A DNA stretch of 64,000 bases from a virus. Taxonomy: Duplodnaviria > Heunggongvirae > Uroviricota > Caudoviricetes. Positions 1 through 39,354 of the stretch are shown here, in pieces; within the stretch, counting starts at the first letter, position 1, and every line of letters begins with the position of its first letter. Where the stretch lies: IMG/VR virus record IMGVR_UViG_2778261268_000002; one strand, given 5' to 3'. A model generated the notes under the pieces. It did not search any database and was not told the origin of the DNA. It was given only the letters and a program-made list of their open reading frames with translations. The position numbers were made by a program, and so were the translations under genes.

Positions 1-17
1 ACCTCGGTTTACAGGAA
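1..17 (-). other. cix: Cin/Gin/Hin-type inversion crossover site (partial, cut by window edge)
   Basis: Reverse complement TTCCTGTAAACCGAGGT matches the left 17 bp of the gix/cix 26-bp consensus; inverted partner at 3664-3689. Confidence 0.6.
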
Positions 18-1025
18 ACGGTAAACAGGGCTGGTAACGCCGTGCAAAAAAATGGCGATACCTTGTCCGGTGGGCTTACTTTTGAAAATGACTCAATCCT
101 TGCCTGGATTCGAAATACTGACTGGGCGAAGATTGGATTTAAAAATGATGCCGATGGTGACACTGATTCATACATGTGGTTTGAAACAGGCGACAACGGC
201 AATGAATATTTCAAATGGAGAAGCAAACAAAGCACCACAACAAAAGACCTGATGAATCTTAAATGGGATGCTTTGTCTGTTCTTGTTAAAGCCCTTTTCA
301 GCAGTGAAGTAAAAATATCGACAGTCAATGCACTGAGGATATTTAATTCATCTTTTGGTGCCATTTTTCGCCGTTCTGAAGAATGCCTGCATATCATCCC
401 TACACGAGAGAACGAGGGAGAAAATGGTGATATAGGGCCACTACGCCCCTTTACGCTTAATCTTAGAACTGGTCGGATAAGCATGGGGCATGGTCTTGAT
501 GTTACAGGGGATATATTTGCAAACCGTTTTGCAATTAACAGTAGTACCGGCATGTGGATTCATATGCGTGACCAGAATGTTATTTTGGGACGCAATGCGG
601 TATCCACCGATGGTGCGCAGGCATTACTTCGTCAGGACCATGCTGATCGCAAATTTATGATTGGTGGGCTGGGAAATAAGCAATTTGGCATCTACATGAT
701 TAATAACTCAAGGACAGCCAATGGCACCGATGGTCAGGCGTACATGGATAATAACGGGAATTGGCTTTGCGGCTCGCAAGTTATTCCCGGCAACTATGGC
801 AATTTTGATTCCAGATATGTGAAAGATGTTCGACTTGGTTCACAGCAATATTATGGAGTGAACAACTGGCAAACATGGAATTTCCAGTGCCCTTCAGGTC
901 ATGTATTGTCTGGTATTAATGTTCAGGATACAGGTTCCAACTCTGCCGATAATATAGCGGGCGTTTATTACAGACCCGTTCAAAAGTATATAAATGGCAC
1001 CTGGTATAATGTAGCGAGCGTTTAA
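3..1025 (+). CDS. Sv': Alternative tail-fibre variable C-terminal module (5' partial; only joined to the constant part after inversion)
   Basis: ORF open to window start in frame 3; C-terminus ...[12 protein letters not shown] parallels the end of the full tail-fibre gene; reading frame through the crossover site encodes LGLQE like LGLRE in S. Confidence 0.7.
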
Positions 1026-1026
1026 T

Positions 1027-1554
1027 ATGATGCACTTAAAGAACATAAAAGCGGGTAACGCTAAAACACTGGAACAGTATGAGTTAACAAAGAAACACGG
1101 AGTTATCTGGCTTTACTCTGAGGACGGAAAAAACTGGTATGAGGAAGTGAAAAACTTTCAGCCAGACACAATAAAGATTGTTTACGATGCAAATAATATT
1201 ATTGTCGCCATCACTAAAGATGCCTCCACGCTTAACCCTGAAGGTTTTAGCGTCGTTGAGGTTCCCGATATAACAGCCAACCGCCGCGCTGATGATTCAG
1301 GAAAGTGGATGTTTAAGGATGGATCTGTAGTTAAACGGATTTATACGGCAGACGAACAGCAACAACAAGCCGAATCACAAAAGGCCGCATTGCTTTCCGA
1401 AGCTGAATCAGTCATCCAGCCGCTGGAACGCGCTGTCAGGCTGAATATGGCAACAGACGAGGAACGCACACGACTGGAAGCATGGGAACGCTATAGTGTT
1501 CTGGTCAGCCGTGTGGATACGGCAAATCCTGAATGGCCACAAAAGCCTGAATAA
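1027..1554 (+). CDS. U': Tail-fibre assembly chaperone (alternative copy)
   Basis: 175 aa; N-terminus [11 protein letters not shown]...[13 protein letters not shown] and [10 protein letters not shown]...GKWMFKDG are typical of Tfa; paralogue of 1583-2116. Confidence 0.85.
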
Positions 1555-1560
1555 AAATTA

Positions 1561-1580
1561 AGGCCCGCTATCGGGCCTTG
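1561..1580. terminator. Bidirectional stem-loop between convergent tfa genes
   Basis: AGGCCCG-CTAT-CGGGCCTT hairpin flanked by A/T runs. Confidence 0.45.
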
Positions 1581-1582
1581 TC

Positions 1583-2116
1583 TCATTCAGGTTGTTCGGG
1601 AAATGTTACTGGCAGGCTGGAGGTGTCTGTAGATTCGACTTTCTGCGCATAGAGCATCCACTCAGTTAATTTTTGTTTATTCTCGTCGGAAATGATGCCC
1701 AGCCGTAGCTGTGAGTCCCATAGCTGGGTTTTATCCCTGACAAGTTGCAACAGGCTTTGCTTTTCATTCTCTGCCTGCTGCCTCTGTTCCTCCTCGGTAT
1801 AAGTTCGCTTTATCACTACGCCATCTTTGAACATCCATTTACCCGAAATATCAGCCCGGCGATTTGCTGTAATATCAGGAACCTCAACGACGCTTGCGCC
1901 TTCTGGATTAATTGCTGAAACATCCTTTTCAATACAAATAATAACGTTGTTGTGGTCATAGACCATTTTCAACGTATCAGGCTGAAAGTTCTTTTGTTCC
2001 TCATACCAGTTTTTCCCATCCTCTGTATAAAGCCATTTGATGTTAAATTGTTTCGTTAGCTGGTATTGCTCTTTTGTTTTAGGGTTGCCAGCAGTAATAT
2101 TTTTTAAGTGCATCAT
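1583..2116 (-). CDS. U: Tail-fibre assembly chaperone
   Basis: 177 aa, about 60% identical by eye to the plus-strand copy; immediately downstream of the tail-fibre gene. Confidence 0.85.
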
Positions 2117-2118
2117 AA

Positions 2119-5037
2119 TTAAATACTCCCCGCGTTATACCACGTTCCATTAATGCAATACTGAATTGGCCTTGCCTGAGTTGTATCAATTAATTCATCA
2201 CGGTTTCCGTTAACTGAACCCGTAACGACATAACCTGACCTGTCAGACCAGCCGGGACCATTCCATGTCTGAACAGATGACAGACCGCCAAGGCGAATAC
2301 CTGTAATAAACCTTGAGTTACATTCTGCCTGCGTATATGCTCCAACATCTCCCGCAGAGGGTTTGCGGGTTGTGGTGTAAAACTCTGACCAGTCAGCTTC
2401 AAAGCCATAACCATCTCGCGCTGAACGATAATAAATACCGCCGTTCTTATAATTCACACGGAACTGAACCGCCGGGCAACTCCCCGCATTCATATTAAAG
2501 TGAAGAATCAATGTTGACGCTCCACTAATAGTCGCATTATAAACGCCGCTATTTGAGTTCCATCCAACAGCTTTGTCATTTCCAACAGTGCTTCCTGTCT
2601 GCCCTAAAGCAAATGCAGGCTGCTGATTTTTGGTACTGTAGTCACGCCGCCAGCCTGGCGCATAATCTCCACCGTGGTTTATATAAGTAAATTGTGCATT
2701 AGTAGTTCCGCCACCGCTGGAAGTGCTCGGGGTGGTTACACGGATGGTCATGGCACCTTTATTACCCATAACCTCAATAACGCAACCTGCAAGATGAATA
2801 GTTCCACAGCCAGTATCGGTAATAATTTTATTATTGCCGTATGACCATGAACATTTGCACATCCAGTATGGGTGATTGAATGCCCCTTGAGAATCCAGCC
2901 ATTCAATCAATTGTGCCGTCGTCCAGTTTCCTGCACCTGTGCTAATAGCACCATGAAAAGAGCGGCAAGCACCTATTGTTTGCGTAAATTTATCTTTGTT
3001 TGGAATATCTGCGCCGTTCTGTTTTTTCTGCAATGATCCAGCGGCTAATTCTACGGTTTGCTCAAGATTTAAATCTTCCGCCGTTAACTCAATGTTTTTA
3101 GAACCATCAAACGAGACACCGTTAATAGTACGTGCTGTCTGCAATTTAGTCGCTGTAGCCGCATTACCAGAGGTATCCTGATTCCCTTTGGCATTAACGC
3201 CGGGAACGGAATCTTTTGACGTATAGACCTGTGCCCATTCAGACCAGTTGGCAGAATCAGTATCCCGCCGCGAACGGATATGTACGGGCGCATGGGCACC
3301 GCTCGTGCCACTCCAGCCAATGAATAACTCACCTTCGCCAGCAGCGGTGGCACCTTTAAGGTGAAGCACATTGCCATAGGGGGAAGGGTAGCCATTGTTG
3401 TATGCCTCATACAGCTGAATCCCGGATGTTCCCTGTGCATTCGCCTCCAGGGCCGTTACGCGACCGCGCGATACCAGAGTATTGATATTAATGTCACCAG
3501 AACCATCGAACCTGACGCCATTAATGTTTCTGGCTGTTTTCAATTTCGTTGCGGTATCGGCGTTCCCTGTCAGCGCCCCGGTGATCCCGCCGTTGAAAGT
3601 CTGGCGTGCACTCCATGTGTTAGCCGTGCTCAACAGGGGGATCTTTTCACCGCTGGTACCGAGTTCTCTTAAACCAAGGTATTGGATAACGGCCAGTGTG
3701 CTTGTTTTAGCCAGAATATCGCGACCGACTGACGTTAAATCAGTCTGAGCTACCGTATCCTTACCAGTGAAATAAGGCAGTTTGTTTGCACCAGTCGCAA
3801 GGGCAGCGAGAGCGGTTAAAGTTGCATCCAGAGGCTGTTTGCCTGCCAGCGCATTTGTCATTGTTGTCGCAAAGTTCGGGTCATTGCCAAGTGCTGCGGC
3901 AAGCTCATTCAGGGTATCAAGAGCTTCTGGTGATGAACCAACCAATGCGGATATGGCAGCTCTTACATAAGCGGTCGTAGCAATCTGCGTGTTATTCGTA
4001 CCCTGTGCAGCGGTAGGCGCAGTAGGTATTCCCGTTAATGCAGGACTTGCTAAAGGAGCTTTAAGAGCCAGAGCATTGTTGATAGTTGTGCTGAAATTCG
4101 GGTCGTTATTGATCGCTGCAGCTATTTCTTTAAGCGTATCCAGTGTGCCTGGTGCACCGTTGATAAGTGCCGTTATAGCTGCCTTAACAAAGGCTGTATT
4201 TGCGATCTGCGTGCTATTTGTACCTTGCGCTGCCGTCGGCGCGGTTGGCGTTCCTGTCAGACTCGGGCTTTCTATTGGCGCTTTGGTATCAGCAAGATCT
4301 TTTACAGACTTAACGGCTTTAGGGGTAGCCGCCATTGTTTCGCTGTCGCTGTTAGTTTCGCTACTGAGCTGAACTAATCCCTTTTGCGTTGTGCTTGCAT
4401 CCTGCGCCGTATACTTACTTTTCGCCAGATCGTAAGCTTTTTTAACTGCCAGCGAACTTGCAGCAACATCACTTCTGCTACTGGTTACAGAGTCTGAAAT
4501 ATCAATGCCGATCGTGCGGTTGATACGCTCGGATGTATCAATCATCTCCTGGGTAATGGCAGATACACCAGCAGGGATATTCACCGTACAAACAAGCAGC
4601 TCCCCATCTCCTAACTGATATGAATCGGTATAGGTTCTGGCAATAAATTCGGCCGCATAAATATGTGACGCTGTATTAACCTGATAGGTATCTTCTCCAA
4701 GGAGGTATCTTCCCTTCAGCACAATTGCATATTTCTTGCCTGCGCTAAGTGCAAGAGAAATATCCTTACGTTGCTGAATAGTTACCTGGTAGAATTCACC
4801 AATATCCACCGACGCCGCGCCTGCGGTTTTATCACCATCCACTGAGGTGATTAACAGGTTCATCCCACCACTAGGCTTAGGTAAGAAACCGGCATAAAAT
4901 CCCGGGTCAACAATCCCTCTGAATTTTCGGTTTAGCGCGGCTGACAGATATGGTTCGTGGTATTGCACATCAGCCACCAGAGCCAACGACTCGGGTGATG
5001 GGTAAGTAACCGATGTAACAACTGTAACGTCATTCAT
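2119..5037 (-). CDS. S: Tail fibre protein (constant N-terminal part plus currently attached variable part)
   Basis: 973 aa from ATG at 5037 (RBS AAGGA upstream); Ala/Thr/Gly-rich repeats, [13 protein letters not shown] and [13 protein letters not shown] fibre motifs; the track ORF start at 5124 is an upstream in-frame extension. Confidence 0.85.
3664..3689 (+). other. cix: Inversion crossover site inside the tail-fibre gene
   Basis: TTCTCTTAAACCAAGGTATTGGATAA, 13/17 identical to the inverted site at 1-17; lies in codons ...VIQYLGLRE. Confidence 0.6.
3829..4269 (-). repeat. Internal tandem duplication (two units of about 73 codons) within the tail-fibre gene
   Basis: Protein residues about 257-329 and 330-403 repeat: SP(S/A)LTG(T/I)[23 protein letters not shown]...LDTL.E.AAA..NDPNF. 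Confidence 0.6.
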
Positions 5038-5048
5038 CAAGCATATCC

Positions 5049-5483
5049 TTATGCTGTAGTCGTGTTTATGGCCATAACTGCGGTATATGTTTTGCCTACA
5101 TACAGCGAGTCTTCCTGGACACAAATAATGGCGATTGGCTTGTTCTCGTTATCCAGAACAACCAGAGTGTTGAATGGGTAGTTTTTCCCTTCCTGCAACT
5201 GGCTTTGATCAAGGTCCATTCGGACAGTAATTATCCCACCTGAGTAGGTTGGCACGAGGTTGATGGTGCAAAATTGACTGGTCAGTTCTGCCAGATCGAA
5301 AGCCTTTGGCAGTTCTCCAATCTCATAAGTGCCATCTCCTTTCTTAGTAACCAGCGAACTGGTACCGAAAACGGCCTTGCTGATTAAAAATCGAGAGCCT
5401 TTGTTAATGGACGATTCAGCGCGCCGCTGATAGTAATAGTCCAACAACTGACTCTTATAGAGGTTTGTTGAGACGTCAGACAT
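5049..5483 (-). CDS. Tail/baseplate-associated structural protein (position of P1 R)
   Basis: 144 aa; stop 12 nt upstream of the tail-fibre start; same operon. Confidence 0.5.
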   Translation of the reverse strand: MSDVSTNLYKSQLLDYYYQRRAESSINKGSRFLISKAVFGTSSLVTKKGDGTYEIGELPKAFDLAELTSQFCTINLVPTYSGGIITVRMDLDQSQLQEGKNYPFNTLVVLDNENKPIAIICVQEDSLYVGKTYTAVMAINTTTA

Positions 5484-5561
5484 GATTTTCCCTAATCAAT
5501 GTTGTGAAGCCTCATTGTAAGATAAGTAACTTGTCACCCCGCCCTGCGGACGGGGTTATTG

Positions 5562-6401
5562 TCAGGCATCGCTATCCAGCAGCAAATCATCTGCGAGGGT
5601 GCGATCAAACGTAGGCGTTGCTTTCACAATAGTGCCGCCCGGCGTTGCAGTGATCGGAGCGCTAATCGACGTAACTCCAGTAAGCGAAGTTGTATCCGAA
5701 GTTTCAAACCAGCAGTACGCTTTTTCGGTATCAGAAATCTCGTTCAAAGTGATCATGTCGGCCTGTTCATTTACAACAACCGACAAATAGAGCGTAAGCC
5801 CATCAAACACTATATGCAGTGGCAGTAGAGGCTTTACGAACTGATTAAACTTTCTGAGAATTTCTTCTGTAATTGCAGACTGATCTATCGTGCCAGTAAT
5901 CCCCATTGTCCGGGCCAGGTCGTTTATGGGAATACTGATCATCCCTCTGGAAGTCAGAAACATCTCGCCGAATGTGCCGCCGGTAGTCTCCAGTGTGCTT
6001 TCTGGTATTAGAACCGTGCCATAGGGATGACGCTCAAGGTCCACCGGTGCATATATCGGATCCCATAAAACAGAAATACCGTTAAATTCGCGGTAAATTG
6101 TCTGGTTTATAGGGCGTTCAGTCCCCTTAAAGTGAATCTCATCAAGACGCTGTTGTAACAACATCGGAACGGAAGATGAGTTCGACGTTCTGATAGTAAA
6201 GAACTGGCCAAGTTCATTTGTCCTGGTCTCCAGATCCTCCTTGCTCATGGAGAAAATAGACTTCCGGTTGGTAATTCGCTCCAACCATGGGTCAACAAAG
6301 GTGTCCATCATTGACTGAACCAAATCAGCCAATGATTTATAGAGCAATGACTTTTGCTTAGCTGATGTAAGCCGGTTATTAAACCAGGAACGCTGCATCA
6401 C
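5562..6401 (-). CDS. Baseplate/tail structural protein
   Basis: 279 aa; start overlaps the stop of the upstream gene (ATGA), so translationally coupled within the tail operon. Confidence 0.5.
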   Translation of the reverse strand: MMQRSWFNNRLTSAKQKSLLYKSLADLVQSMMDTFVDPWLERITNRKSIFSMSKEDLETRTNELGQFFTIRTSNSSSVPMLLQQRLDEIHFKGTERPINQTIYREFNGISVLWDPIYAPVDLERHPYGTVLIPESTLETTGGTFGEMFLTSRGMISIPINDLARTMGITGTIDQSAITEEILRKFNQFVKPLLPLHIVFDGLTLYLSVVVNEQADMITLNEISDTEKAYCWFETSDTTSLTGVTSISAPITATPGGTIVKATPTFDRTLADDLLLDSDA

Positions 6402-7831
6402 TCCTCCTCATACGAAATATTAAAGGTGGAGTTTTCTGTATCCAGATAAACGAAATCGTAAAAGCCGTTGGACTCATTCCACTCGACAAATTCCAGATAA
6501 AAGTCGCGGAAATAACCCAGCGTTTCGATAAACGCCCAAACGTCTTTTTTCTTAATCAGGATGTACTTTCCAACGCGGTTCGGATCAAAAAAAGTTGAAT
6601 CGCGCCCAAATTTTGTTTCCAGTGCCGACTTCAGCTCATCGGTCACATTCTCAATGGTCAGGCTTGCCGATATCCGTCCGGTGATGGTGATCTTAAAGGG
6701 TAGTTTTCTGACCTCTTTATAAGAGAATTTCTTGTTCAGTTCATTCGGTACCTTCTTAAAGGCAGTCAGGATCATTTCTTCAAGCTCTGACTGGCTTTTA
6801 TTTGGATGCCATCCTGAAATAAATATCTTATTGATATTCTGAACATTATAAGCACCATCTAATTTCTCTTGCTGGCCTTCGCCCCATGCCTTTACCCAGG
6901 ACAGCCCCGGGATGTTACGAACCAGAAAATACGTATAGTCCCCGCCCCATACGACCTGATCATCATAGGCAAGGTAATATTGTGCACGGTTACGTGTGAT
7001 CTCCGTTGTTTCAGCATCGGTACCTGCGGTTATAGGTGTCGTTGTCTTAACTGAAATCAAATTAGCTAAATTAGCCGCAGAATCGACAGGCGTCAGGTTT
7101 TGGCCAGCAACCAGGGTTATATCGCCGTTGGTGCACCATACCTTAAGCGTAATTGTCGAGCCTTCTGGCGGTATTTGCCCAATTAGTCCATCGCCGAATC
7201 GAACCCCCAACTGCTCGGAAGGTTTATAAAACTCAACGTAGACCTGGCTTTTACTACCGGCTAACCGGAACATAGTGCTGGAAGACCACTGCGTGGTCTT
7301 ACCATCGGTCGTCACGAATACTTCCAGCTTATAGCAGACAGCAGTGAGAGCCTTTGATAACACGACTTCCAGAAATTCTTTGGCTGCCGTAACGGTATAT
7401 GTCACCTCCTGGATTTCCAACTGTGCCACTTCTACCGTACCGGTGCCGTCAACCAACCTGCATACATCCATAGTCATGTAAGGGTACTGGTCGTCAGATA
7501 TTAAAGGCATGTTTTTGGGTATTACCGCTGGGGCATCTTCACTTGTGGCAGTGATCTCAATCATCCCCGATGACGGTGTTGGCTTGGTACCAACGTAACT
7601 ATTCGTTTCTGCCGCTGCCAGGATAGAGGAACGCCGCGTCGCGGTCGATATAAAGCCTTCAGCCAGCGCCGCATCGGCATACTGAAAGCACCTGTAGACA
7701 ATCTGGGTAATAAACAATGTCAGCATCGAGACAAATTGAGAGCCGACAAACTTCGACCAGAATGAATCTTTCTCGACAAGCTCTTCAAACTCTGCACGAA
7801 TACTGTCTTTAGTCGGTGTTGTTTTACTCAT
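6398..7831 (-). CDS. Baseplate protein (baseplate-J-like by position and size)
   Basis: 477 aa; overlapping stop/start with neighbours on both sides. Confidence 0.45.
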   Translation of the reverse strand: MSKTTPTKDSIRAEFEELVEKDSFWSKFVGSQFVSMLTLFITQIVYRCFQYADAALAEGFISTATRRSSILAAAETNSYVGTKPTPSSGMIEITATSEDAPAVIPKNMPLISDDQYPYMTMDVCRLVDGTGTVEVAQLEIQEVTYTVTAAKEFLEVVLSKALTAVCYKLEVFVTTDGKTTQWSSSTMFRLAGSKSQVYVEFYKPSEQLGVRFGDGLIGQIPPEGSTITLKVWCTNGDITLVAGQNLTPVDSAANLANLISVKTTTPITAGTDAETTEITRNRAQYYLAYDDQVVWGGDYTYFLVRNIPGLSWVKAWGEGQQEKLDGAYNVQNINKIFISGWHPNKSQSELEEMILTAFKKVPNELNKKFSYKEVRKLPFKITITGRISASLTIENVTDELKSALETKFGRDSTFFDPNRVGKYILIKKKDVWAFIETLGYFRDFYLEFVEWNESNGFYDFVYLDTENSTFNISYEEE

Positions 7832-8187
7832 AGCACCACGTCCTGTGTGATAGTTATATCCCTGATACGAATGGATATTTTCAACTTATCAAAAGCATCT
7901 CCCTCGGCTACTGACAAGCCAGAAATCGGTATGTCGGGTAAATCTACCGTCAGTTTTTGCAAAAGCATTGCCTCAACCGCAATTTGAACATGTGACAAGT
8001 TGGTCGGTTCGTGTTTAAACTGCGGTAAAACATTGCCCCATGACGGATCTCCGTATACCTCACCCTGATAAGTGTTTAGCCACTCATATAAACGAGCGCC
8101 CCAGGCCTCCTCCTGGGACTCATACGTTTTTACGCCGGATAACTCCAGCGTCAGTAAAGGATCAATTTCATTATTGTTGGCCATCAA
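7828..8187 (-). CDS. Small baseplate-region protein (possibly GPW/gp25-like)
   Basis: 119 aa; coupled to the flanking baseplate genes. Confidence 0.4.
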   Translation of the reverse strand: MMANNNEIDPLLTLELSGVKTYESQEEAWGARLYEWLNTYQGEVYGDPSWGNVLPQFKHEPTNLSHVQIAVEAMLLQKLTVDLPDIPISGLSVAEGDAFDKLKISIRIRDITITQDVVL

Positions 8188-11100
8188 TCAACTCTCGCGT
8201 AGTCATTCATCAACGGATCATCAATTGACAGTGGCACCGTGCGCATAACGCCCGGTTGAGGCGTGCTGACCTTTACGACAGTTCCCTGGCCTTTCGCCGA
8301 GTCTTTAGTGTGCTCTTCAATCCTGGCAAGCAATGAGGTCATCTGCGCAAACAGCCGCTTCGTTTCACCATCAAGTGAAACGGTATTATCAGCCAACTGC
8401 ATTGTCGGCTTGGCACCGGAGCCGCCAAGGTCACTAATAACCTGTCCGTCTATCTGCATACGACCGGTTGGTTGCTGCAAATCGTTGGCGGCAGTCGTCA
8501 CCTGGGACGTGGAGGCTGGTTCAGGCGCATTATTTTTCCGCATCCCCGGCGAGTTGCGGAGTTTATCGAATAGTCCATCAATCCCCATTTGTGCGCCGAG
8601 TTGGTCAAAGTAACTTGAGTTGCTGGCCACCGGACGCGCCTCTTCAACTGGCATCGGAGTATCAACATACACATTGCCAGCTGCTGTTGCGGTCCCCTTC
8701 CCTCGTGCACGTTCTTCGAGCGTTCCCTGAACGACTTCCCGACGCATACCCCGGCCATTCATGAATTTGTTGACCAGATCGTTAACGCCAACAGCATTGC
8801 CGATTTTGTCTACCAGACCGCCTTTCTCAAACGGGCTATCACCAGGGGTAAACGCCAGGCCAGTAGACTGATCGATAACGGCGTTATCAGGTATCTTTTC
8901 GTAAATTGCTGGTGCGCTATGATCTACCTTAGAGCCATAAACGGCACCATTATTGAGCATCTGCTGATACCCTCTGACACGAGTAACATATTCGCCGGTA
9001 CCTGCGACTACTCTCCCCTTATCAACATGCCCCATACCAGCATGATAGGCAGCTATTGCACGACCCTGATCACCGTTATAACGGTTCATCAGCATACTTA
9101 GGTATCTGGCGGCACCATCAGCTGCTTTTCGTGTATCCATGGCATCAGCATCGCTGAGTCCAAGATCCTCCCTTGTACCTTTAGTGATCTGAAAAGCCCC
9201 AAGGGCAGATGAAAGTTTGTTCCCGTTTTTGTCTACTGGATTTCCAGTTCTCTGGCCTGCACTAGACTCTGCGGATGCAACTGCTGACAGAATCCCTTTT
9301 TCAAGCCCATACTTACGTTCAAGCTCATCAAAATAATCGGCATTGTCAGAAATCCATTGGTATCCGGCAGCATTTAATTTTGGCAAAGAAACATCCTTGC
9401 CATTGTTAAATCGACGTTTATCTATCTCATATGCACTTAATGCTTCCTCCTTACCTGTAGCAGACTGCCCCAAGGCAGCATCAATTGTTTGTGCTGCTTT
9501 ATTTCCTGTTTCTACGGCATTTGCATTGATAATCTGATTAGCAGTTTCTTTAACTGTTTTATTGCTATCTTTCGCCATATCCAGGGCCGCATTTATCACG
9601 CGGGCAGCAATATTAGTCTGTTTGGCATCGGATTCAGTTTTAGAATCAGATGTCCCCTGGTGGCTATTAACCGGAGCTTTTAACTCTGGAGTGATTTCTT
9701 TCGCATTAGCCTCGCCGATCGGATTGGGTATTTTTGATACAATCATTGCCGCAGGGGTATTTTTAACGGCATCAACCGCTGCATCTAATGCTTTACCTGG
9801 TAAATTTTTAACCCCATCCCAAATATTACCAGCCGCCTCTTTAATGTGTTTCCCTGGGTTCTTAATGAAATCAATTGCACTATCAATTGCATCACTGAAA
9901 ACCTGTTTCAGGTTATCGACAGTAAAGAAGTCTTTGATGGCATCCAGCTTTTCAAGCAGCTTATTAGATGTATCGCTAAACCATGCTGAAACAGCATCAC
10001 CAATCTTTGCTGTGTAATCATCGAACTTGGTAGAAATGGTGTCGCCAAGGTTAGAAATATATGTTTCTAAGTTGGTAATCCCACTATCAATGGCCAGGGC
10101 AATACTTTCCGTCGAAAATGATTGCAACATATTGCCGATATCCTCAAATCCAAGTGATTTGAGAACCTCACCAATGGCGCTGCTAATACCAGATACCAGT
10201 CCCCCCATATCAAGAACATTAGCTAACGTATAAGCGGCTTTTTGCTGGAATGATGGATCTTGCCCTGATTTAAGCCCAAACGCTCGACGTTGCGCTTCTG
10301 TATCATTCCAACCGGTTACCGCATCATAAATACCTCCAGCCACTGTGCCGACTAGGGGAATTGCGCGTAACGCCCCTTTACCAACTGCCTTTAATCCAAG
10401 TTTACCTGCTGCCCGGGCAGCCAAATCTCCGCCTTCATGGGCGAGAGTCTTCTTGCCACCACCGCGTAGCATTCCTACAAGTTTCTTTGCCCCCAGAGCG
10501 CCAAAAGCGAGTGCTCCAGCTTTTTTCAGCATGCCACGCCCCATTAACAACGACGCGACGCCACCGGCCCCCTTCCCTAACAGGCTAAATAATTTGGACA
10601 GCAAGCCGCCCTTCTTTTTCCCGGTGTTTTTGGCTATCTGATCAAGGGCGCTGAGAATCTTGTCATTGCCCTCTTTAATTTCGCTGGTCTGATCCTGAAG
10701 TTCCTGAACCGTCCGTTTTTGGGTGTTAACCTGAACGACATCGGCACTATTTTGCGATTTACGCCTAAAAAAACCTTTTCTACGGCTGTTATCGTCATTG
10801 CCACGAATCACATCGGCAATAGACTTTCTGGCACCATTAAGCGATCCACCAACTTCTTTTGATATCCCGCCAAGCTCCTTCCCTGCGGCCCACAATGGAC
10901 CAGCAACGGCATAACCTAACGCATCGACGGCACGAGTCTCTGAAGGGTTACCTATGCCTTCAGCTACTTTTGACAGTTTTTTTAATAAACCTGATTCAGC
11001 ATTTAGACGCTCATCATCCTCTTTTCGCCTGGCCTTTTCTGCTCGTTCAGCACGGGCATCTTCCGCTGCGGCCTTACTCCCTGACTTTCCAATAAAACGA

Positions 11101-11558
11101 CCACGCGCATCGCGTTGGTTTTGGCTTTTTTGCGCACCGCCTTTTTGACCGAACATTTCGCGAGCGTGTTCGGCTGCTTCGGTCCGTTGCGCCTTTACAT
11201 CCTCTGGTATAGCCTTCCTGCGTCGTTTTTTACCATTTGGTGTGGTTGATTTGGCCCGCTGTTCCTGTTGAGCAACATCTTCCTGAACTACACGAGAAAC
11301 GTCCCCTAAATTAAGCCGTTTCATTGCGTCAACAATAGGGTCTACTGATGGCGCTTTGGCCACAAAGTCAGGCCGGGAATTTTCGATTGTGTGATTTAAT
11401 GCCGACACGCTGCGAGAGACAGGATCAACAGTAGCAACTCGCCCACCTTTCAAATCTTCAACAGCTTCCCGGATACCAGCAAGCTCTTCCAGCTCTTTTG
11501 CGCTGGCGGTTTCAACTGTCCTTATAACATCGTCAATGTTGGCGTTTTTTCTTTCCAT
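8184..11558 (-). CDS. sit: Tape-measure-like injection protein with soluble lytic transglycosylase domain
   Basis: 1124 aa; Gly/Ala/Lys-rich helical central region; transglycosylase motif ...GAFQITKGTREDLGLSDADAMDTRKAADGAARYLSMLMNRYNGDQGRAIAAYHAGMG. Confidence 0.8.
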   Translation of the reverse strand: MERKNANIDDVIRTVETASAKELEELAGIREAVEDLKGGRVATVDPVSRSVSALNHTIENSRPDFVAKAPSVDPIVDAMKRLNLGDVSRVVQEDVAQQEQRAKSTTPNGKKRRRKAIPEDVKAQRTEAAEHAREMFGQKGGAQKSQNQRDARGRFIGKSGSKAAAEDARAERAEKARRKEDDERLNAESGLLKKLSKVAEGIGNPSETRAVDALGYAVAGPLWAAGKELGGISKEVGGSLNGARKSIADVIRGNDDNSRRKGFFRRKSQNSADVVQVNTQKRTVQELQDQTSEIKEGNDKILSALDQIAKNTGKKKGGLLSKLFSLLGKGAGGVASLLMGRGMLKKAGALAFGALGAKKLVGMLRGGGKKTLAHEGGDLAARAAGKLGLKAVGKGALRAIPLVGTVAGGIYDAVTGWNDTEAQRRAFGLKSGQDPSFQQKAAYTLANVLDMGGLVSGISSAIGEVLKSLGFEDIGNMLQSFSTESIALAIDSGITNLETYISNLGDTISTKFDDYTAKIGDAVSAWFSDTSNKLLEKLDAIKDFFTVDNLKQVFSDAIDSAIDFIKNPGKHIKEAAGNIWDGVKNLPGKALDAAVDAVKNTPAAMIVSKIPNPIGEANAKEITPELKAPVNSHQGTSDSKTESDAKQTNIAARVINAALDMAKDSNKTVKETANQIINANAVETGNKAAQTIDAALGQSATGKEEALSAYEIDKRRFNNGKDVSLPKLNAAGYQWISDNADYFDELERKYGLEKGILSAVASAESSAGQRTGNPVDKNGNKLSSALGAFQITKGTREDLGLSDADAMDTRKAADGAARYLSMLMNRYNGDQGRAIAAYHAGMGHVDKGRVVAGTGEYVTRVRGYQQMLNNGAVYGSKVDHSAPAIYEKIPDNAVIDQSTGLAFTPGDSPFEKGGLVDKIGNAVGVNDLVNKFMNGRGMRREVVQGTLEERARGKGTATAAGNVYVDTPMPVEEARPVASNSSYFDQLGAQMGIDGLFDKLRNSPGMRKNNAPEPASTSQVTTAANDLQQPTGRMQIDGQVISDLGGSGAKPTMQLADNTVSLDGETKRLFAQMTSLLARIEEHTKDSAKGQGTVVKVSTPQPGVMRTVPLSIDDPLMNDYARVD

Positions 11559-11639
11559 GATCTTATCGCCTACCGTTTCGGTTTAAGTTTTTCTTCCAGT
11601 TTCTCCAACAGGAAAAACGCATAGGATTCAGTGAGCCTT

Positions 11640-12521
11640 TCAGCGTCCTGAATCGGTATACCCCCATACAAAACCAGGTTGGACACTAAGGTCTGATAGC
11701 TTTTCAATCCCCACCTGTGGAATGAAGTCGGTAGCCCGAAAGGGCACCCACAGACGGGTATACGCACCCTCTGTGGACTCCTTTTTATCCTGGTTTGGGC
11801 ATTTATGCGGCGGGAGACGAAGACGCATTTCACCTTTATCGATGTAGCACGGTAAACCATGTTCGAGCTTTTCATGAGCCAGTCGGATGTGTGCCGCCAG
11901 CTTCATAAATTCAGTATCAATGGCCATCCGTTTAATCGTTTCATAACGACGCTCAGCCTGATCTTCACGAGTACCGCTAACATCGTTATAAAGCTCACAC
12001 TGATAAGCGAATTCCCAAAAACGCAAATCAACGATCGCTTCTTTGAATTCCGCGTCGTCTTCAGGTGGCAATGCTGCACGGCGCATCTCCAGCATTTCCA
12101 TTGCCCAACCATCAAGCGGCACGATACGCCATTGATAAGGCACTCCCTCTACAGACACCTCAATATCGTCAATGAAAGGTTCCACTTCCAGGACCTGGAT
12201 ATCTTCAGCCAGAGCATTCATATCGCAATCGTAATAATGCTCTTTACCGCAATGTTTACAGGTGTAGGTGAATGTCTCGACCGGTGTTTCACGGGAGCCG
12301 GTAAATATCCACCATAACGCGGTAATCCGGTCCTGCGCCGTCCATGTCAGGGGATCATGTTTCGCGGGTTCAGCCAGCAAGGCTTTTAAATATGCCGTTG
12401 TCTGTTGTTCTTGTTCCTCCGGTGTTATCGAGTTGAAACGCATCGCATCAGCAATATTTGGCTGACGGAACTGGATCAATTCAGTTGGCCGCGATGGTAG
12501 CGGGAAAAGGGGTAAAAGCAT
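11640..12521 (-). CDS. Tail morphogenesis protein (hypothetical)
   Basis: 293 aa; Cys cluster CKHCGKEHYYDC; an overlapping frame (11570-11875) has a protein-like C-terminus, so a frameshift is possible. Confidence 0.5.
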   Translation of the reverse strand: MLLPLFPLPSRPTELIQFRQPNIADAMRFNSITPEEQEQQTTAYLKALLAEPAKHDPLTWTAQDRITALWWIFTGSRETPVETFTYTCKHCGKEHYYDCDMNALAEDIQVLEVEPFIDDIEVSVEGVPYQWRIVPLDGWAMEMLEMRRAALPPEDDAEFKEAIVDLRFWEFAYQCELYNDVSGTREDQAERRYETIKRMAIDTEFMKLAAHIRLAHEKLEHGLPCYIDKGEMRLRLPPHKCPNQDKKESTEGAYTRLWVPFRATDFIPQVGIEKLSDLSVQPGFVWGYTDSGR

Positions 12522-12535
12522 CCTTGCTCCTTAAT

Positions 12536-13147
12536 TCAAAGAGAAAAACTAAAGCCCAGAAGGGAAGCCAAAGAACTTGAGGATTGGTTAAACGTGCTGT
12601 GCAATGCGAAGGTCATTGGGAATGACTTAAATTCCGTGACCTGATCCCGCGCATAGGTGACATCGCCGGTAGTAACCGGGAATACCGTCATCTCATTTTC
12701 CAGTTTGGTTAAACCGGAAGACAGCAACCGATAAATACGCACATTGAGCAAATATTTAGACGGTATGTTCACGGTGCCGTCAGGATTGATCACCCGACTT
12801 TTTGCCGTCTTAAACCAGTCCAAAACGAGGCCATCACCGGTATCCCTGACCATCATTGTTATCTGCCCAGGCGAACGCTCCGTTGGCTGAAGGATATTCC
12901 CTCCGCCGATTTTAATCGTTTCATATTCGATGCTGTAATCGTGGTAGGTAATGTCTTTGGCAAAGAAGTCTGCCCCCTCCAGCCCATCAACTTCGACAGA
13001 GAACTGCCATCCTTGCGCGAACAGCATTTTGTTCATGATGATTGACGTCAGCTTACCAACTTCCCGCTCACCAACGCCGGAGCCAAATAATGTCGTCGTT
13101 AATGCCGAAGATATATAAGACTTTACTGATGCAACATTAAGTCCCAT
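12536..13147 (-). CDS. Putative tail tube / tail structural protein
   Basis: 203 aa; position corresponds to the tail-tube gene of P1-type tail operons (from memory of gene order, not from sequence similarity). Confidence 0.4.
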   Translation of the reverse strand: MGLNVASVKSYISSALTTTLFGSGVGEREVGKLTSIIMNKMLFAQGWQFSVEVDGLEGADFFAKDITYHDYSIEYETIKIGGGNILQPTERSPGQITMMVRDTGDGLVLDWFKTAKSRVINPDGTVNIPSKYLLNVRIYRLLSSGLTKLENEMTVFPVTTGDVTYARDQVTEFKSFPMTFALHSTFNQSSSSLASLLGFSFSL

Positions 13148-13157
13148 ATCAACGACC

Positions 13158-13748
<591 letters not shown>

Positions 13749-13878
13749 TTAACCGATTCTACGAGTTGTCATTTGTTACCGGTCAGTCTACACATTTCAG
13801 ATACTACGTTAAAACAACTCAAGTGCTTCAAGTAGCACATCGTCATCAACACCCAATCCGAAGATGCGGAGATAAAAT

Positions 13879-15063
13879 TCAAGCCTTAAGAGGCTTTGTG
13901 TATGTTCGTGTAATCCAACCAGTAATAAACTCATCCCCTGATTTAACCTGCACGTAAAGCCATTGACGATCTTTCTTATCTAAAATAGCAACAATTGTGT
14001 TTTTGCCAATGCATTCAATCACTTCACTATTTAAAGAAGGACTGACATGTAATCTTACGTTATCACCAGTTATAAACCTAAAACCATTGAGATCTTCCCA
14101 CTTAATTTCTGTGTTTTCTTTAATTAATTTTTGTTTTGATATTGGTGCATCCTCATATAGGGATACAGAATATGATTCTGTCTTGTGTATTTGCGATAAG
14201 ATTTGTTCTTTTGCATAATCAGCAATAGCGCCAAGCACCACTTCTGTTAAAAGCCACATAATAATAAACTGAAGCGGGTGAGGGAGCGACTTAAATGAAT
14301 CAATGAACGTCGAACTGGATTTATTTAATCCTTTGTCTTGAACATCACTTTCGTTGTGAGATGTTTCAATAGCACCTTCGACATAAGCCTGTGCAATTGA
14401 TGAAAGACTTTGCTCCATTATTTGATGTAATGAAGCCTTTTGCGCTAGGGTATATTGTTTTAATGATTCTTTTATTTCATTGTTTAAATCTATCTTATGA
14501 CTTACATTTTGTCGCAATTCATTAAGTATTGCTTGCATGTTATTTAAACCAGCTTGCTTATTAAGCATCTCGAACTGGTTTCGTAACGGCATAGCAATTT
14601 CTGCCTGCTTCCTTAGCATTTGAATGTATTTATTTGCATCATGCGGGGGATAAACCTTGGCCTGTTTCTGTAGAATTTCAAGAAATTCACGATGCTTGCT
14701 ATTTATTCTTCTCAAGCTCGTCATGTTCGCAAGCTGTTTTTTAACAGAATCACTAAGTAACGATTGCAAATTCAATCTTGCTATTTGTTCTTGAGCTAGC
14801 CGCCCTATTCTTAACTGTTCTTGCAAGTTTGCCATATGTTCTCTATACGATGGAATGATTGCGTTTTTTTGCAGTTCTGCCAACTGTCTAACCAAATTAT
14901 TAGAAGCATATTCTGATTTTAATAAATCACTTGCCGATGTATATCCTGGCATTTTGATTTTACTTAAATTATCACGCCAGGTAATATTTGAATCTCTATT
15001 ATAGAGATCGCTTACTGAGCCAAGTGCAAGTTTTTTAATATCCTTCACTTTATTCACCGTCAT
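13879..15063 (-). CDS. Membrane-anchored coiled-coil protein with C-terminal SH3-like domain (sim-type exclusion operon)
   Basis: 394 aa, AT-rich; one hydrophobic segment FIIMWLLTEVVLGAIADY; C-terminal ...FRFITGDNVRLHVSPSLNSEVIECIG...WLYVQVKSGDEFITGWI. Confidence 0.5.
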   Translation of the reverse strand: MTVNKVKDIKKLALGSVSDLYNRDSNITWRDNLSKIKMPGYTSASDLLKSEYASNNLVRQLAELQKNAIIPSYREHMANLQEQLRIGRLAQEQIARLNLQSLLSDSVKKQLANMTSLRRINSKHREFLEILQKQAKVYPPHDANKYIQMLRKQAEIAMPLRNQFEMLNKQAGLNNMQAILNELRQNVSHKIDLNNEIKESLKQYTLAQKASLHQIMEQSLSSIAQAYVEGAIETSHNESDVQDKGLNKSSSTFIDSFKSLPHPLQFIIMWLLTEVVLGAIADYAKEQILSQIHKTESYSVSLYEDAPISKQKLIKENTEIKWEDLNGFRFITGDNVRLHVSPSLNSEVIECIGKNTIVAILDKKDRQWLYVQVKSGDEFITGWITRTYTKPLKA

Positions 15064-16249: not shown

Positions 16250-16399
16250 GTATTTTTAAGTCACGAATGCTATCTTTTCGCATCATATTGACCTTTTAAT
16301 CGTTCAGGCTTATAGTTCCGCCGTCGTAGCAAATTCTGCGACCAGGTTTGACAGCCTGAATGATTGTGCGGACAACCGCAGATTTCCGATATTGCGGTA

Positions 16400-16520
16400 T
16401 TTTTGTGTCCGTTAAACCGCGTTACGCCCAAATTATGGTGGGGCGTGATGGGGAGGCTTCGGCCTGCTGGTTTCACAATCGCCAGTCTGTCAACCCTGTC
16501 ACGTCCTGCCACCTGTTTGA
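16400..16520 (+). ncRNA. Candidate c4-type antisense regulatory RNA (boundaries approximate)
   Basis: Non-coding leader between operator and icd/ant with stable hairpins (GGCTTCGGCC, ACGCCC...GGGCGT) and segments complementary to downstream leader sequence. Confidence 0.25.
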
Positions 16521-38050: not shown

Positions 38051-38126
38051 GATGGTGTAGCTCAGCGGTTAGAGCGGTTGACTGTTAATCAACGGGTCGA
38101 TGGTTCAAATCCATCCACCATCGCCA
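38051..38126 (+). tRNA. tRNA-Asn (anticodon GTT)
   Basis: Cloverleaf with acceptor GATGGTG/CACCATC, anticodon loop CTGTTAA, T-loop GGTTCAAATCC, encoded CCA. Confidence 0.9.
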
Positions 38127-38128
38127 AT

Positions 38129-38204
38129 GCCGGTTTAGCTCAGTTGGTAGAGCGCCTGCCTTGTAAGCAGGATGTCAGCGGTTCGAGTCCGTTAACCGGC
38201 ACCA
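38129..38204 (+). tRNA. tRNA-Thr (anticodon TGT)
   Basis: GCCGGTTTAGCTCAGTTGGTAGAGC..., anticodon loop CTTGTAA, T-loop GGTTCGAGTCC, encoded CCA; 2 nt after tRNA-Asn. Confidence 0.9.
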
Positions 38205-38767
38205 GCACAACAGGTAAGGGCATTCTCCCTTATAGGGCTTGGCTTAAATGCATCGAGTGCTCTTACCGTTGTGATGAAGTGCAGCTCTTTGAAGCAACCA
38301 GAAGATAAGCATCTGGCTTCACAACATAAACCGCAGGAACGACCAATAAACGGTAGTCCGTATGGAGAACACCCCGTTGAGGAAGAGGCCTGGCCGGAAC
38401 CGTAACCGGCGACTGGTAATGTGTGTAAATGGAGCGAAATATGTGGGCGTTTAACGGGATACGGGTTGTAACAGCGATTATTAACGGCGAACTTAAGTAT
38501 TCACGTTTCGAGACAAATGAACGTGATGGGAAATGTATTGGTGTGCGGTTAGTAAGAGAATACGCATAACAACTACAACGTTGAGAACACTGGCGTAACG
38601 GGGTCATATCCCAATCTATGAATAAATGTTGCGTTGCAGCGTGACAACCAGTGTTCTCAACATTGTGGTGAATGCACAGGCTGATGTGCCGCAACTACAG
38701 TAGTGCGCGCTTTGCGGGGCTTGCTACAACCCTGTGTCGGAGTTCAGCACCGACCATCACAATCACT

Positions 38768-38854
38768 GGAGAGTAGGGAGCATGGTGCTCAAACGGTCTT
38801 GAAAACCGTCCCATTGCGCAAGCGATGATGGTTCGATTCCATTACTCTCCGCCA
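38768..38854 (+). tRNA. tRNA-Ser-like element (anticodon TGA; class II, possibly pseudo)
   Basis: Acceptor GGAGAGT/ACTCTCC, anticodon arm ACGGT-CTTGAAA-ACCGT, long variable arm with GCAA tetraloop, T-loop TTCGATT, CCA; D-arm is short. Confidence 0.45.
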
Positions 38855-39117
38855 GTGCAACGTTAAGAGTATTTGGCTAATTAAGCGAATGCCGGAAGCA
38901 GAACCGGATCACCAAATGCGTACAGGCGTCATCGCCGCCCAGCCAGCCAAGTGCTCTTACCATTGCGGTGAATGCGGCTATGCGCACGCGGAACAGTTAA
39001 AACAATCCTCCTTAGTGGTTAAGTCAAACATCCCGGCGTTAATTGTTAACTGGTTAACGTCACCTGGAGGCACCAGGCACCGCAGCTTTTTTATTCGTTA
39101 AATAATGGAGTGAGAGG

Positions 39118-39354
39118 ATGCAGAACAATCCGAACAAATGTCGAACGCTATGGGTGCGGTTATATATTTATGCCGTCCTCTGTTTGATTGTGTCACTGGT
39201 TCTGTATGTTTGGCTTTTGCCAAATATGATCTCATCTAACAGCACAATACTTGTATTGTTGGGAGTCCTTTTCGCGCTCATTTACCCGGCTTTCGCAGTA
39301 GTCTTTTTTCGTGAAAAAACCAGGAAATTAATTAATGAAAAAAACGTTGATTAG
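39118..39354 (+). CDS. Small integral membrane protein
   Basis: 78 aa, two hydrophobic helices; overlaps the start of the downstream lipoprotein gene. Confidence 0.5.
   Translation: MQNNPNKCRTLWVRLYIYAVLCLIVSLVLYVWLLPNMISSNSTILVLLGVLFALIYPAFAVVFFREKTRKLINEKNVD

Follow-up and report, generated by a model that had tools for sequence, protein, structure and literature searches.

The window analyzed here (64,000 nt, the first 64 kb of the 100,712-nt draft contig NLGC01000016.1, assembly GCA_002225655.1) belongs to a phage-plasmid of the P1/P7 family, and its positions 1-3689 are, with near certainty, the C segment, a tail-fiber host-range switch of the P1 type driven by the invertase Cin. The system is already known and ordinary. 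The P1 C segment and Cin are textbook material, Cin-mediated inversion of this segment has been described (PMC6906374), and P1-like plasmids with such a switch are abundant, with 654 matching records in PLSDB. The left end of the segment is odd, and most likely reflects the path taken through the assembly graph; a real hybrid is less likely. The explanation as a whole, in which a P1-type Cin switch is combined with an assembly-path origin for positions 1-158 and with a left repeat arm that the plasmid presumably retains, is on balance probable.

The window aligns colinearly with P1, P7 and RCS47 (C segment, followed by S, R, 16, bplA and sit, and then late genes), and named members of the family have 92-99% backbone identity to this contig. 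The gene order cin, Sv’, U’, U, Sv, Sc, R is the same as in the P1 C segment, which is also found in P7, D6, RCS47, SJ46 and P1-like IncY plasmids. Annotation of P1 and P7 supplied the cin, enhancer, cixL, cixR, Sv, Sv’, U and U’ features used for comparison. An initial annotation had proposed an invertible tail-fiber host-range switch in this region, and the colinearity with P1 and P7, the exact cixR and the Pfam matches to fiber and chaperone families bear this out. Features are listed in Table 1.

Table 1. Features of the C segment and adjoining genes (window coordinates)
Feature	Position	Strand	Basis and remarks
Truncated Mu/P2-type crossover site	1..17		ACCTCGGTTTACAGGAA; the source contig starts at base 1
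P2-like/Mu-type patch at contig terminus	1..158		32 differences from the closest P1-family plasmids; 0-1 from P2-like modules
Sv’, silent alternative C-terminal fiber module	3..1025	+	ORF and translation; 340 codons, own start codon absent, stop at 1023-1025
U’, tail-fiber assembly chaperone for Sv’	1027..1554	+	Pfam Caudo_TAP, E = 8.5e-38
U, tail-fiber assembly chaperone for expressed Sv	1583..2116	-	Pfam Caudo_TAP, E = 5.6e-37
S, tail fiber, 972 aa	2119..5037	-	ORF; Pfam Phage_fiber_2 and gp37_C
Decayed Mu-type site relic, inner edge of right arm	3058..3083		10 of 26 positions match the P2-like site (hand count)
Right arm of 0.63-kb inverted repeat, P1-type C segment	3065..3687		Inverted repeats of 630-636 nt in relatives L002 and L003
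cixR, 26-bp Cin crossover site	3664..3689		TTCTCTTAAACCAAGGTATTGGATAA; identical to annotated P1 cixR
R, tail-fiber structure/assembly, preceding S in a shared late operon	5049..5483	-	ORF; P7/P1 annotation; PF26881 Phage_P1_tail_fiber_R

The segment carries alternative fiber C-termini in opposite orientations, each with its own chaperone. The two fiber modules and two convergent assembly genes that had been placed between the sites were recovered as ORFs and as Caudo_TAP matches at 1027-1554 (+) and 1583-2116 (-). Sv’ is homologous to Mu S and to the tip P1 Sv (Pfam Gp34_trimer, E = 4e-12), with alignments to Mu, SfMu and D108 starting from base 1 and the alignment to P1 from base 10. Gene S, whose coordinates coincide with those of the annotated S of p18B269LT2, is composed of a variable part, Sv (2119 to the crossover at 3676-3677), and a constant part, Sc (crossover to 5037); its exact protein was found on the source contig and a sister contig only. 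The fusion at the crossover is in frame, and translation of frame 3 from base 3 and of gene S agrees with the earlier placement of both sites within codons for Leu-Gly-Leu-(Gln/Arg)-Glu.

The cixR sequence occurs once in the window, and none would be expected in shuffled sequence. Its central dinucleotide (3676-3677) is AA on the + strand and TT in the reading of S, and its outer half-site (3678-3689; ...TTATCCAAT) lies within Sc. As in the P1 family, a 0.63-kb arm adjoins cixR. This arm encodes approximately 205 aa that are common to both fiber versions in P1-family phages, and it differs from the L002 left arm at 3681 and 3683 only. No matching inverted repeat that could serve as its partner was found in the window, nor a separate copy on the contig; the left arm is present in the relatives L002, L003 and P7. 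Matches in the relic at the inner edge of the arm were counted at the homologous position after aligning window 3000-3100 with the P2-like elements L004 and L005.

A serine invertase of approximately 190 aa had been anticipated outside the window, and this contig does encode one: cin, at 96,472-97,032, specifies a 186-aa protein with PF00239 and PF02796 (185 of 186 residues identical to P1 Cin), with the catalytic Ser at position 9 within the N-terminal motif GYVRVST. Within the window, tblastn searches for an invertase gave noise only. The enhancer, likewise anticipated outside the window, would be a 72-nt stretch within cin that is identical to the annotated P1 enhancer at 70 positions. The invertase probably does not, as had been supposed, lie immediately left of 1-17: in p18B269LT2, cin ends ~0.6 kb to the left of the equivalent of window position 1, and in the finished relatives P1, P7, p18B269LT2 and NZ_CP016549.1 the 0.63-kb arm (interrupted in P7) is found between cin/cixL and the start of Sv’. 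The cin stop codon falls in cixL, which is identical to P1 cixL, and the outer half-site on the cin side is ...CAATCCTAA. The far end of the contig reads cin-cixL-segment; it is identical to the window through 3680 and divergent from 3681 on, beyond which it runs on into cixL and cin. The two ends of the contig share these 3,680 nt in opposite orientation, a terminal inverted duplication.

It had been implied that the window start cuts a longer sequence, but the source contig itself begins at that base. The truncated site there is made up of ACC (1-3, the last 3 nt of the outer half-site), a TC core (4-5) and the inner half-site GGTTTACAGGAA (6-17). Its reverse complement equals the first 17 nt of Mu gixR exactly, and it is identical to bases 10-26 of Mu gixL (the inner 17 nt) and to the sites of L004 and L005. 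In metagenome contigs, the same 110 nt follow three different left contexts, all of which diverge exactly before ACC. Judged by its sequence, 1-17 is the inner end, still intact, of a Mu/P2-type G segment and is not the partner of cixR. The affinity to P2-like modules extends through position 158, with 0 mismatches to L005 over 1-83 and one mismatch to L004 over 1-560. Differences between the window and the sister contig, L033, are confined to 26 sites within 12-158 and one at 5382; this sister plasmid has one mismatch over 159-15,037 and a canonical P1 junction at the left. p18B269LT2 is 99.5% identical from position 54, with 0 mismatches over 159-3117, and has cin, cixL and a 630-nt arm on its left side. 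The canonical arm/Sv’ junction reads AAATCTACAGGAATTCATT. Whereas this assembly has an intact Mu-type end with core TC, finished P1-family relatives have a left arm at the Sv’ end and, at the position of 1-17, a decayed relic only, which the 0.63-kb arm and cixL separate from cin. Logan unitigs from other segments encoding an identical 340-aa Sv’ match window 12-616 or 1-337, with the same starting base, and the U/Sv halves of those segments diverge from the window.

The two crossover sites had been regarded as an inverted pair, a claim of which only part stands. Both site-type sequences are real, but they are alike at 13 of 17 positions, they represent different sub-types (Mu/P2 gix and P1 cix), and their cores, both read toward the inner half-site, are TC at 1-17 and TT at 3664-3689. 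An inverted-repeat search of the window did not report the two as a pair. Among the references, the core is TC/GA at both sites in Mu, L004 and L005, and TT/AA at both sites in P1 and L002. For Hin, changing one core base is enough to stop ligation in the inverted orientation (PMC4817059, PMC4513852). Because the cores differ, and a single core mismatch blocks ligation of the inverted state in this enzyme family, 1-17 and cixR appear to be non-cognate, and the cognate partner of cixR is predicted to be cixL (contig 97,024-97,049). Both cixR and cixL have the core AA/TT and both are identical to the P1 sites; the assembly has them at opposite ends of the duplicated segment, and their presumed true spacing is taken from relatives. 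Scanning the full 64 kb for five site variants, with up to 8 mismatches in 26, returned cixR and one chance match only. Low-frequency recombination by P1 Cin between sites with unlike cores, accompanied by local conversion, was reportedly obtained by Iida and Hiestand-Nauer (1986-87), and a mismatched pair would therefore be impaired and not absolutely dead. The central dinucleotide may serve as a quick sequence test for whether two invertase sites can be partners.

We propose that Cin, with a Fis-dependent enhancer in the 5’ part of its gene, would pair cixR with cixL, which overlaps the cin stop codon, cut both sites at the central 2 bp, and religate them after a 180-degree rotation of one half-site pair. 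The inversion would swap the module (Sv and U, or Sv’ and U’) joined in frame to Sc, behind the late promoter that precedes R and S. The window records the state in which Sv and U would be expressed. Among finished genomes, the Sv of the window adjoins cin in P1, and Sv’ adjoins cin in P7 and p18B269LT2; the inner part of the segment in the P1 reference is oriented opposite to that of the window.

The Mu G segment and Pin-type P2-like segments contain the same two fiber tips and two chaperones as the window, and identity to the window is 88% for Mu over 1-3035 and 90% for SfMu over 1-3062. Mu has the core TC/GA at both of its sites and no 0.63-kb arm, whereas the window has the arm. Mu gin lies past the other end of its segment and reads away from it; the P2-like invertase genes that were compared also read away from theirs. 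A Mu/P2-type G segment was considered and rejected for the window: in place of two gix sites with core GA/TC bounding ~3 kb, the left end (1-17) alone is intact and the right matches at 10 of 26 positions (3058-3083), and the sole invertase found, cin, reads toward the segment on a backbone that is P1 and not Mu. The P1 annotation mentions homology to p15B. The Min system of p15B resides on a P1-related backbone and has six crossover sites, with a fiber gene that is assembled by serine-invertase crossovers from a mixture of Mu-like and P1-like modules. Multiple inversion of the Min type was also rejected, with one complete and one truncated site in the whole window and two modules in place of many.

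Window 1-158 most probably derives from a co-resident P2-like prophage. Such a prophage is presumably present in this strain, and the canonical junction should be present in its reads. The prophage would share the next few hundred bases with the plasmid, and the assembler would have taken that branch and stopped at the prophage’s own flipping site. The presence of the 3,680-nt segment, inverted, at both contig ends would be explained by this path into the prophage branch. Breaks at cixL or in the repeat arm are routine in draft P1-like contigs. Draft assemblies of these elements break or fold back at the invertible segment, and termini located there are unfit to be read as gene structure; the last 158 nt of this contig are probably those of another prophage.

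It is possible, but unlikely, that the left arm was instead lost, such that the cin stop is immediately followed by the Mu-type end (core TC) and Cin flips 3.68 kb between that end and cixR, with an alternative fiber that would be without the ~205 aa specified by the arm. The contig does begin at ACC, the first base common to both possible outer half-sites, and shows both flanks joined to the other end of the segment; the plasmid has two flanks only, so the Sv’ end must reach the cin side somehow, and the fusion would be in frame and would restore the natural LGLQETV junction of P2-like fibers. However, the cores are mismatched (TC and TT; PMC4817059), the canonical junction is found in the sister plasmid, which differs at a single base over 159-15,037, and a P1 flank fused to a Mu-type end was not found in PLSDB (72,556 plasmids) or IMG/VR. 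Moreover, cin reads toward the segment and gin/pin read away, so the arrangement cannot arise from a P2-like or Mu-like donor by simple double crossover, and a mixed culture should give the assembler equal support for both ends at each flank. A real hybrid switch, with a P1-type end (cixR and arm, TT) and a Mu/P2-type end (TC) that abuts cin directly, is judged quite unlikely; it would have originated by site-specific exchange with a P2-like prophage and subsequent homologous resolution. If true, this would be a natural exchange of modules between Mu/P2 and P1 that makes a core-mismatched host-range switch, locked or rarely flipping with core conversion, and the flipped fiber would be ~205 aa shorter than any P1 fiber.

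Gene conversion from a P2-like prophage may have made the Mu-type inner half-site on the inner edge of the arm intact again, with cin-cixL-arm kept; the restored site would be a bystander, or a nested third site that needs another TC-core site. Relatives keep a relic at exactly that place (TCTACAGGAAACGG in L003), and donor sequences are common in E. coli chromosomes (a match in 703 of 5,426 genomes). Yet the arm and the P2-like constant region lack homology to the left of ACAGGAA with which to end the conversion tract, no P1-sized plasmid among the top matches listed aligns from base 1 (alignments start at 10 or 54), and the window has no TC/GA-core partner site, which leaves this reading very improbable. 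Hardly credible is a cointegrate, in which a single crossover in the shared fiber module joined the P1-like plasmid to the P2-like prophage, placing the prophage fiber constant region left of base 1 and ending the contig at the prophage’s flipping site. The stretch over which the two are identical is of sufficient length for homologous recombination, and P1-like sequence is recorded in the finished E. coli chromosomes NZ_CP015229.1 and NZ_CP178203.1. Nevertheless, 100,712 minus the duplicated 3,680 is the size of a P1-like plasmid in its free form, and the same segment forms both ends, where chromosome sequence would be expected at one end.

Other observations concern the contig termini. Base 1 of the contig coincides with the first base shared by every left context of a crossover site, a point against an assembly path; the same start would result from a real site next to cin and Sc in a culture of mixed orientation. 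Also against an assembly path, a de Bruijn contig should end in repeat-arm sequence if the canonical arm were the next graph edge, and this contig does not. The duplicated contig ends are explicable by the repeat alone, without actual inversion in the strain.

The locus at window positions 1-3689 belongs to the well-known P1-type C-segment switches and is unremarkable among them. In the P1 and P7 records, the C segment is annotated as cin (the Cin invertase gene), enhancer, cixL, Sv', U', U, Sv, cixR, Sc and R, where Sv and U are the expressed fibre tip and its chaperone, Sv' and U' the silent tip and chaperone, Sc the constant part of gene S, and cixL and cixR the 26-bp sites of Cin. The 26-mer at 3664-3689, TTCTCTTAAACCAAGGTATTGGATAA, occurs once in the window and is P1 cixR at every base. 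Given this annotation and the exact cixR, it is near certain that the locus is the host-range switch that Cin operates in the P1 family (summarised in PMC6906374), and the initial annotation was right in recognizing an invertible tail-fibre host-range switch. P7 and RCS47 match the first 6 kb at 92% over 54-6000, and P1, D6, Mu, SfMu and D108 match it in parts, as do 654 plasmids, the majority of which are non-mobilizable Escherichia plasmids. In its far part, the window is colinear with P7 and SJ46. Scanning the full 64 kb gave no further crossover sites of the kind that a Min-like multi-site system would show, and a tblastn search of the window for a gene resembling cin returned noise only.

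Features of the C segment and its neighbourhood in the window, with the site cores (read toward the inner half) and junction sequences compared
Feature	Position	Strand	Assignment or sequence
Start-less open frame, fibre fragment (Sv')	3-1025	+	Gp34_trimer domain (Pfam)
175-aa gene	1027-1554	+	Caudo_TAP tail-fibre assembly protein (Pfam)
177-aa gene	1583-2116	-	Caudo_TAP tail-fibre assembly protein (Pfam)
972-aa fibre gene	2119-5037	-	Phage_fiber_2 repeats and gp37_C end (Pfam)
R, gp16, bplA, pmgA, 1124-aa transglycosylase	from 5049	-	
Left site, window			ACC TC GGTTTACAGGAA
cixR, window			TTATCCAATACC TT GGTTTAAGAGAA
Both sites, P1 and p18B269LT2			core TT
Both sites, Mu and two P2-like elements			core TC
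Metagenome left context 1			fibre constant region ending TTATCGAAT
Metagenome left context 2			Mu-type fibre constant region ending TTATCCAAA
Metagenome left context 3			invertase side, ending TTATCTAAA
P2-type junction			constant end ...GTTATCGAAT + ACCTCGG

An exact protein look-up found the S protein in two contigs, NLGC01000016.1 (GCA_002225655.1; 100,712 nt) and a sister contig, DAKBZK010000039.1. The first 15,037 nt of NLGC01000016.1 are identical to the window, so that window base 1 is the first base of this contig. Exact look-up of the Sv' fragment returned the same contig twice: its last 3,680 nt (97,033-100,712; locus L044) repeat window 1-3680 (locus L045) exactly in reverse complement, and the two segment copies first differ at 3681 and 3683. 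In this exact terminal inverted duplication, one copy leads to Sc via cixR and the other to cin via cixL. Because the segment is present twice, the real circle would measure about 97-98 kb. A serine invertase of ~190 aa had been expected outside the window, and cin is indeed found on the same contig at 96,472-97,032; its product is identical to P1 Cin at 185 of 186 residues, the 72-nt enhancer within it is identical to that of P1 at 70/72 positions, and the contig's cixL is identical to P1 cixL. Draft P1-like contigs commonly end 0-211 nt past cin, and assemblies of P1-like plasmids break systematically at cixL or at the repeat arm, the 0.63-kb inverted repeat of the segment. Five independent draft P1-like contigs of 65-94 kb (L039-L043) all end 0-211 nt past the cin stop codon. 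An identical Cin protein is also encoded on a 2.86-Mb, chromosomal-size contig (L035; GCA_949281865.1), with darA-lyd genes to one side and lambdoid late genes (antiterminator, NinG/NinH, holin) to the other; either a piece of P1 has recombined into a lambdoid prophage there, or the contig is misassembled.

From base 54 on, the window shares 99.5% identity with the finished plasmid p18B269LT2, and 159-3117 contains no mismatch. To the left of Sv' this plasmid carries cin, then cixL overlapping the cin stop codon, then a 630-nt arm that is an inverted copy of window 3065-3687; the same layout is present in NZ_CP016549.1 and, with an interrupted repeat, in P7. The placement of the invertase immediately left of the window is thus wrong or at least unproven, since cixL and the arm separate cin from Sv' in p18B269LT2. 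At the place of window 1-17, all three relatives have ATTTAAATCTACAGGAA, a decayed relic with a counterpart on the other arm at window 3058-3083. The sister contig DAKBZK010000039.1 has a single mismatch to the window over 159-15,037, begins at window base 12, just within the inner edge of the arm, and contains the canonical junction, in which the arm lies directly beside the Sv' module (arm inner end + ACAGGAATTCATT). A search of IMG/VR for P1-like elements with the window's left end yielded near relatives (L006 and L013); GTDB representative genomes gave no match to it, and all 14 matches in JGI/ENA metagenomes occur in P2-like or Mu-like contexts. No hybrid junction of a cin or Sc outer half with the Mu-type inner half GGTTTACAGGAA was found in IMG/VR or PLSDB.

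Window 1-158 has 32 differences from p18B269LT2; its identical or near-identical counterparts are fibre modules from P2-like prophages and from 48-kb phage-plasmids. Metagenome contigs contain the same 110 nt behind three left contexts, which part from one another immediately before ACC, and one of these contigs itself starts at that ACC base. Logan unitigs of other segments encoding the identical Sv' protein also start there; they match the window without a difference over 12-616 or 1-337, and the U/Sv halves of these segments diverge from it. All outer half-sites share ACC as their first common stretch, so an assembly graph would branch exactly at this point. The first 330 nt of the window also match, at 94.5%, stretches without a listed gene in 118-454-kb plasmids from Klebsiella, Citrobacter, Enterobacter and E. 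coli, which look like a stray fibre-module fragment outside a P1 or P2 context. Further into Sv', the alignment with P2-like modules covers 1-838 and resumes from 966/981, leaving a mosaic patch at 839-980; an E. fergusonii P1-like plasmid is identical throughout. This patch is probably a swapped receptor-binding tip.

Cin/Hin-family invertases cleave their sites at the central 2 bp; after rotation by 180 degrees, the resulting 2-nt overhangs have to pair. With Hin, altering one core base in one site prevents the inverted configuration from being ligated (PMC4817059, PMC4513852). Bases 1-17 of the window are ACCTCGGTTTACAGGAA, the reverse complement of TTCCTGTAAACCGAGGT. Judged by sequence, the left end is of Mu/P2 type and the right end of P1 type, and the two window sites would not form a working pair. 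Translation confirmed that both lie within Leu-Gly-Leu-(Gln/Arg)-Glu codons, as initially annotated, whereas the pairing of 1-17 with 3664-3689 is wrong or at least unproven, with cores of TC and TT.

We consider it fairly probable that the source is a canonical P1-type plasmid, the odd left end of which was produced by the assembler following the branch of a co-resident P2-like prophage. The assembler would enter the segment from both flanks via the identical repeat arm, taking the Sv side each time, and the path would then run through U, U' and Sv'. Within the stretch common to the plasmid and the co-resident P2-like prophage, it would exit along the prophage branch and stop at the flipping site of that prophage. 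Such a path would account for the duplication at the contig ends and the foreign 158 nt, for the exact base at which the contig starts, for the canonical structure of the sister plasmid and for the lack of fusions between a P1 flank and a Mu-type end in PLSDB and IMG/VR.

Taken literally, the initial annotation describes an element in which the left arm is absent and cin abuts the Mu-type end. This would explain the start base equally well and would yield an in-frame fibre, but it requires a core-mismatched site pair as well as a complex and very recent rearrangement with respect to the sister plasmid, and it is without precedent in the collections searched. Nor could a simple double crossover build it, because cin reads toward the segment and gin and pin read away from it. 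Were an inner site restored beside an intact left arm, there would be no homology on the left to end the conversion tract. A cointegrate of the plasmid with a P2-like prophage does not fit a contig that has one and the same segment at both ends. A palindrome of two segment copies joined head to head was rejected because the core would read GA at one end of the contig and TC at the other, as was homologous replacement via cin/pin homology, given that these genes face opposite ways relative to Sv'.

Among finished genomes, the window's Sv adjoins cin in P1, and Sv' adjoins cin in P7 and p18B269LT2. L006 matches the window exactly as far as 3680 and has the order cin-cixL-arm-Sv. Its weight as evidence that a near-identical element exists in the flipped state was lowered, since a walk through the identical 630-nt arm can give the same contig without inversion. 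The right arm of the window (3065-3687) equals the left arm of p18B269LT2 except at 3681 and 3683, in the outer half-site, and has 11 clustered differences from the right arm of that plasmid, especially over 3118-3232. These arm comparisons indicate that, in addition to Cin inversion, the arms have exchanged sequence in the past, through swapping or gene conversion. The arm also contains a 78-nt direct repeat (3091-3168 and 3490-3567; 71% identical) that codes for the fibre-shaft motif TATKL.TAR.INGV.FDGS. Elsewhere in the window, the immI immunity region of P1 lies at 16310-16516, with the C4 antisense RNA at 16431-16516 and its a1/b1 target element at 16310-16362 (Rfam). ARAGORN and Rfam agree on tRNA-Asn, tRNA-Thr and a CAU-anticodon tRNA within 38051-40265, and an 87-nt tRNA-Ser(tga) at 38768-38854 was called by ARAGORN only, below the Rfam threshold.
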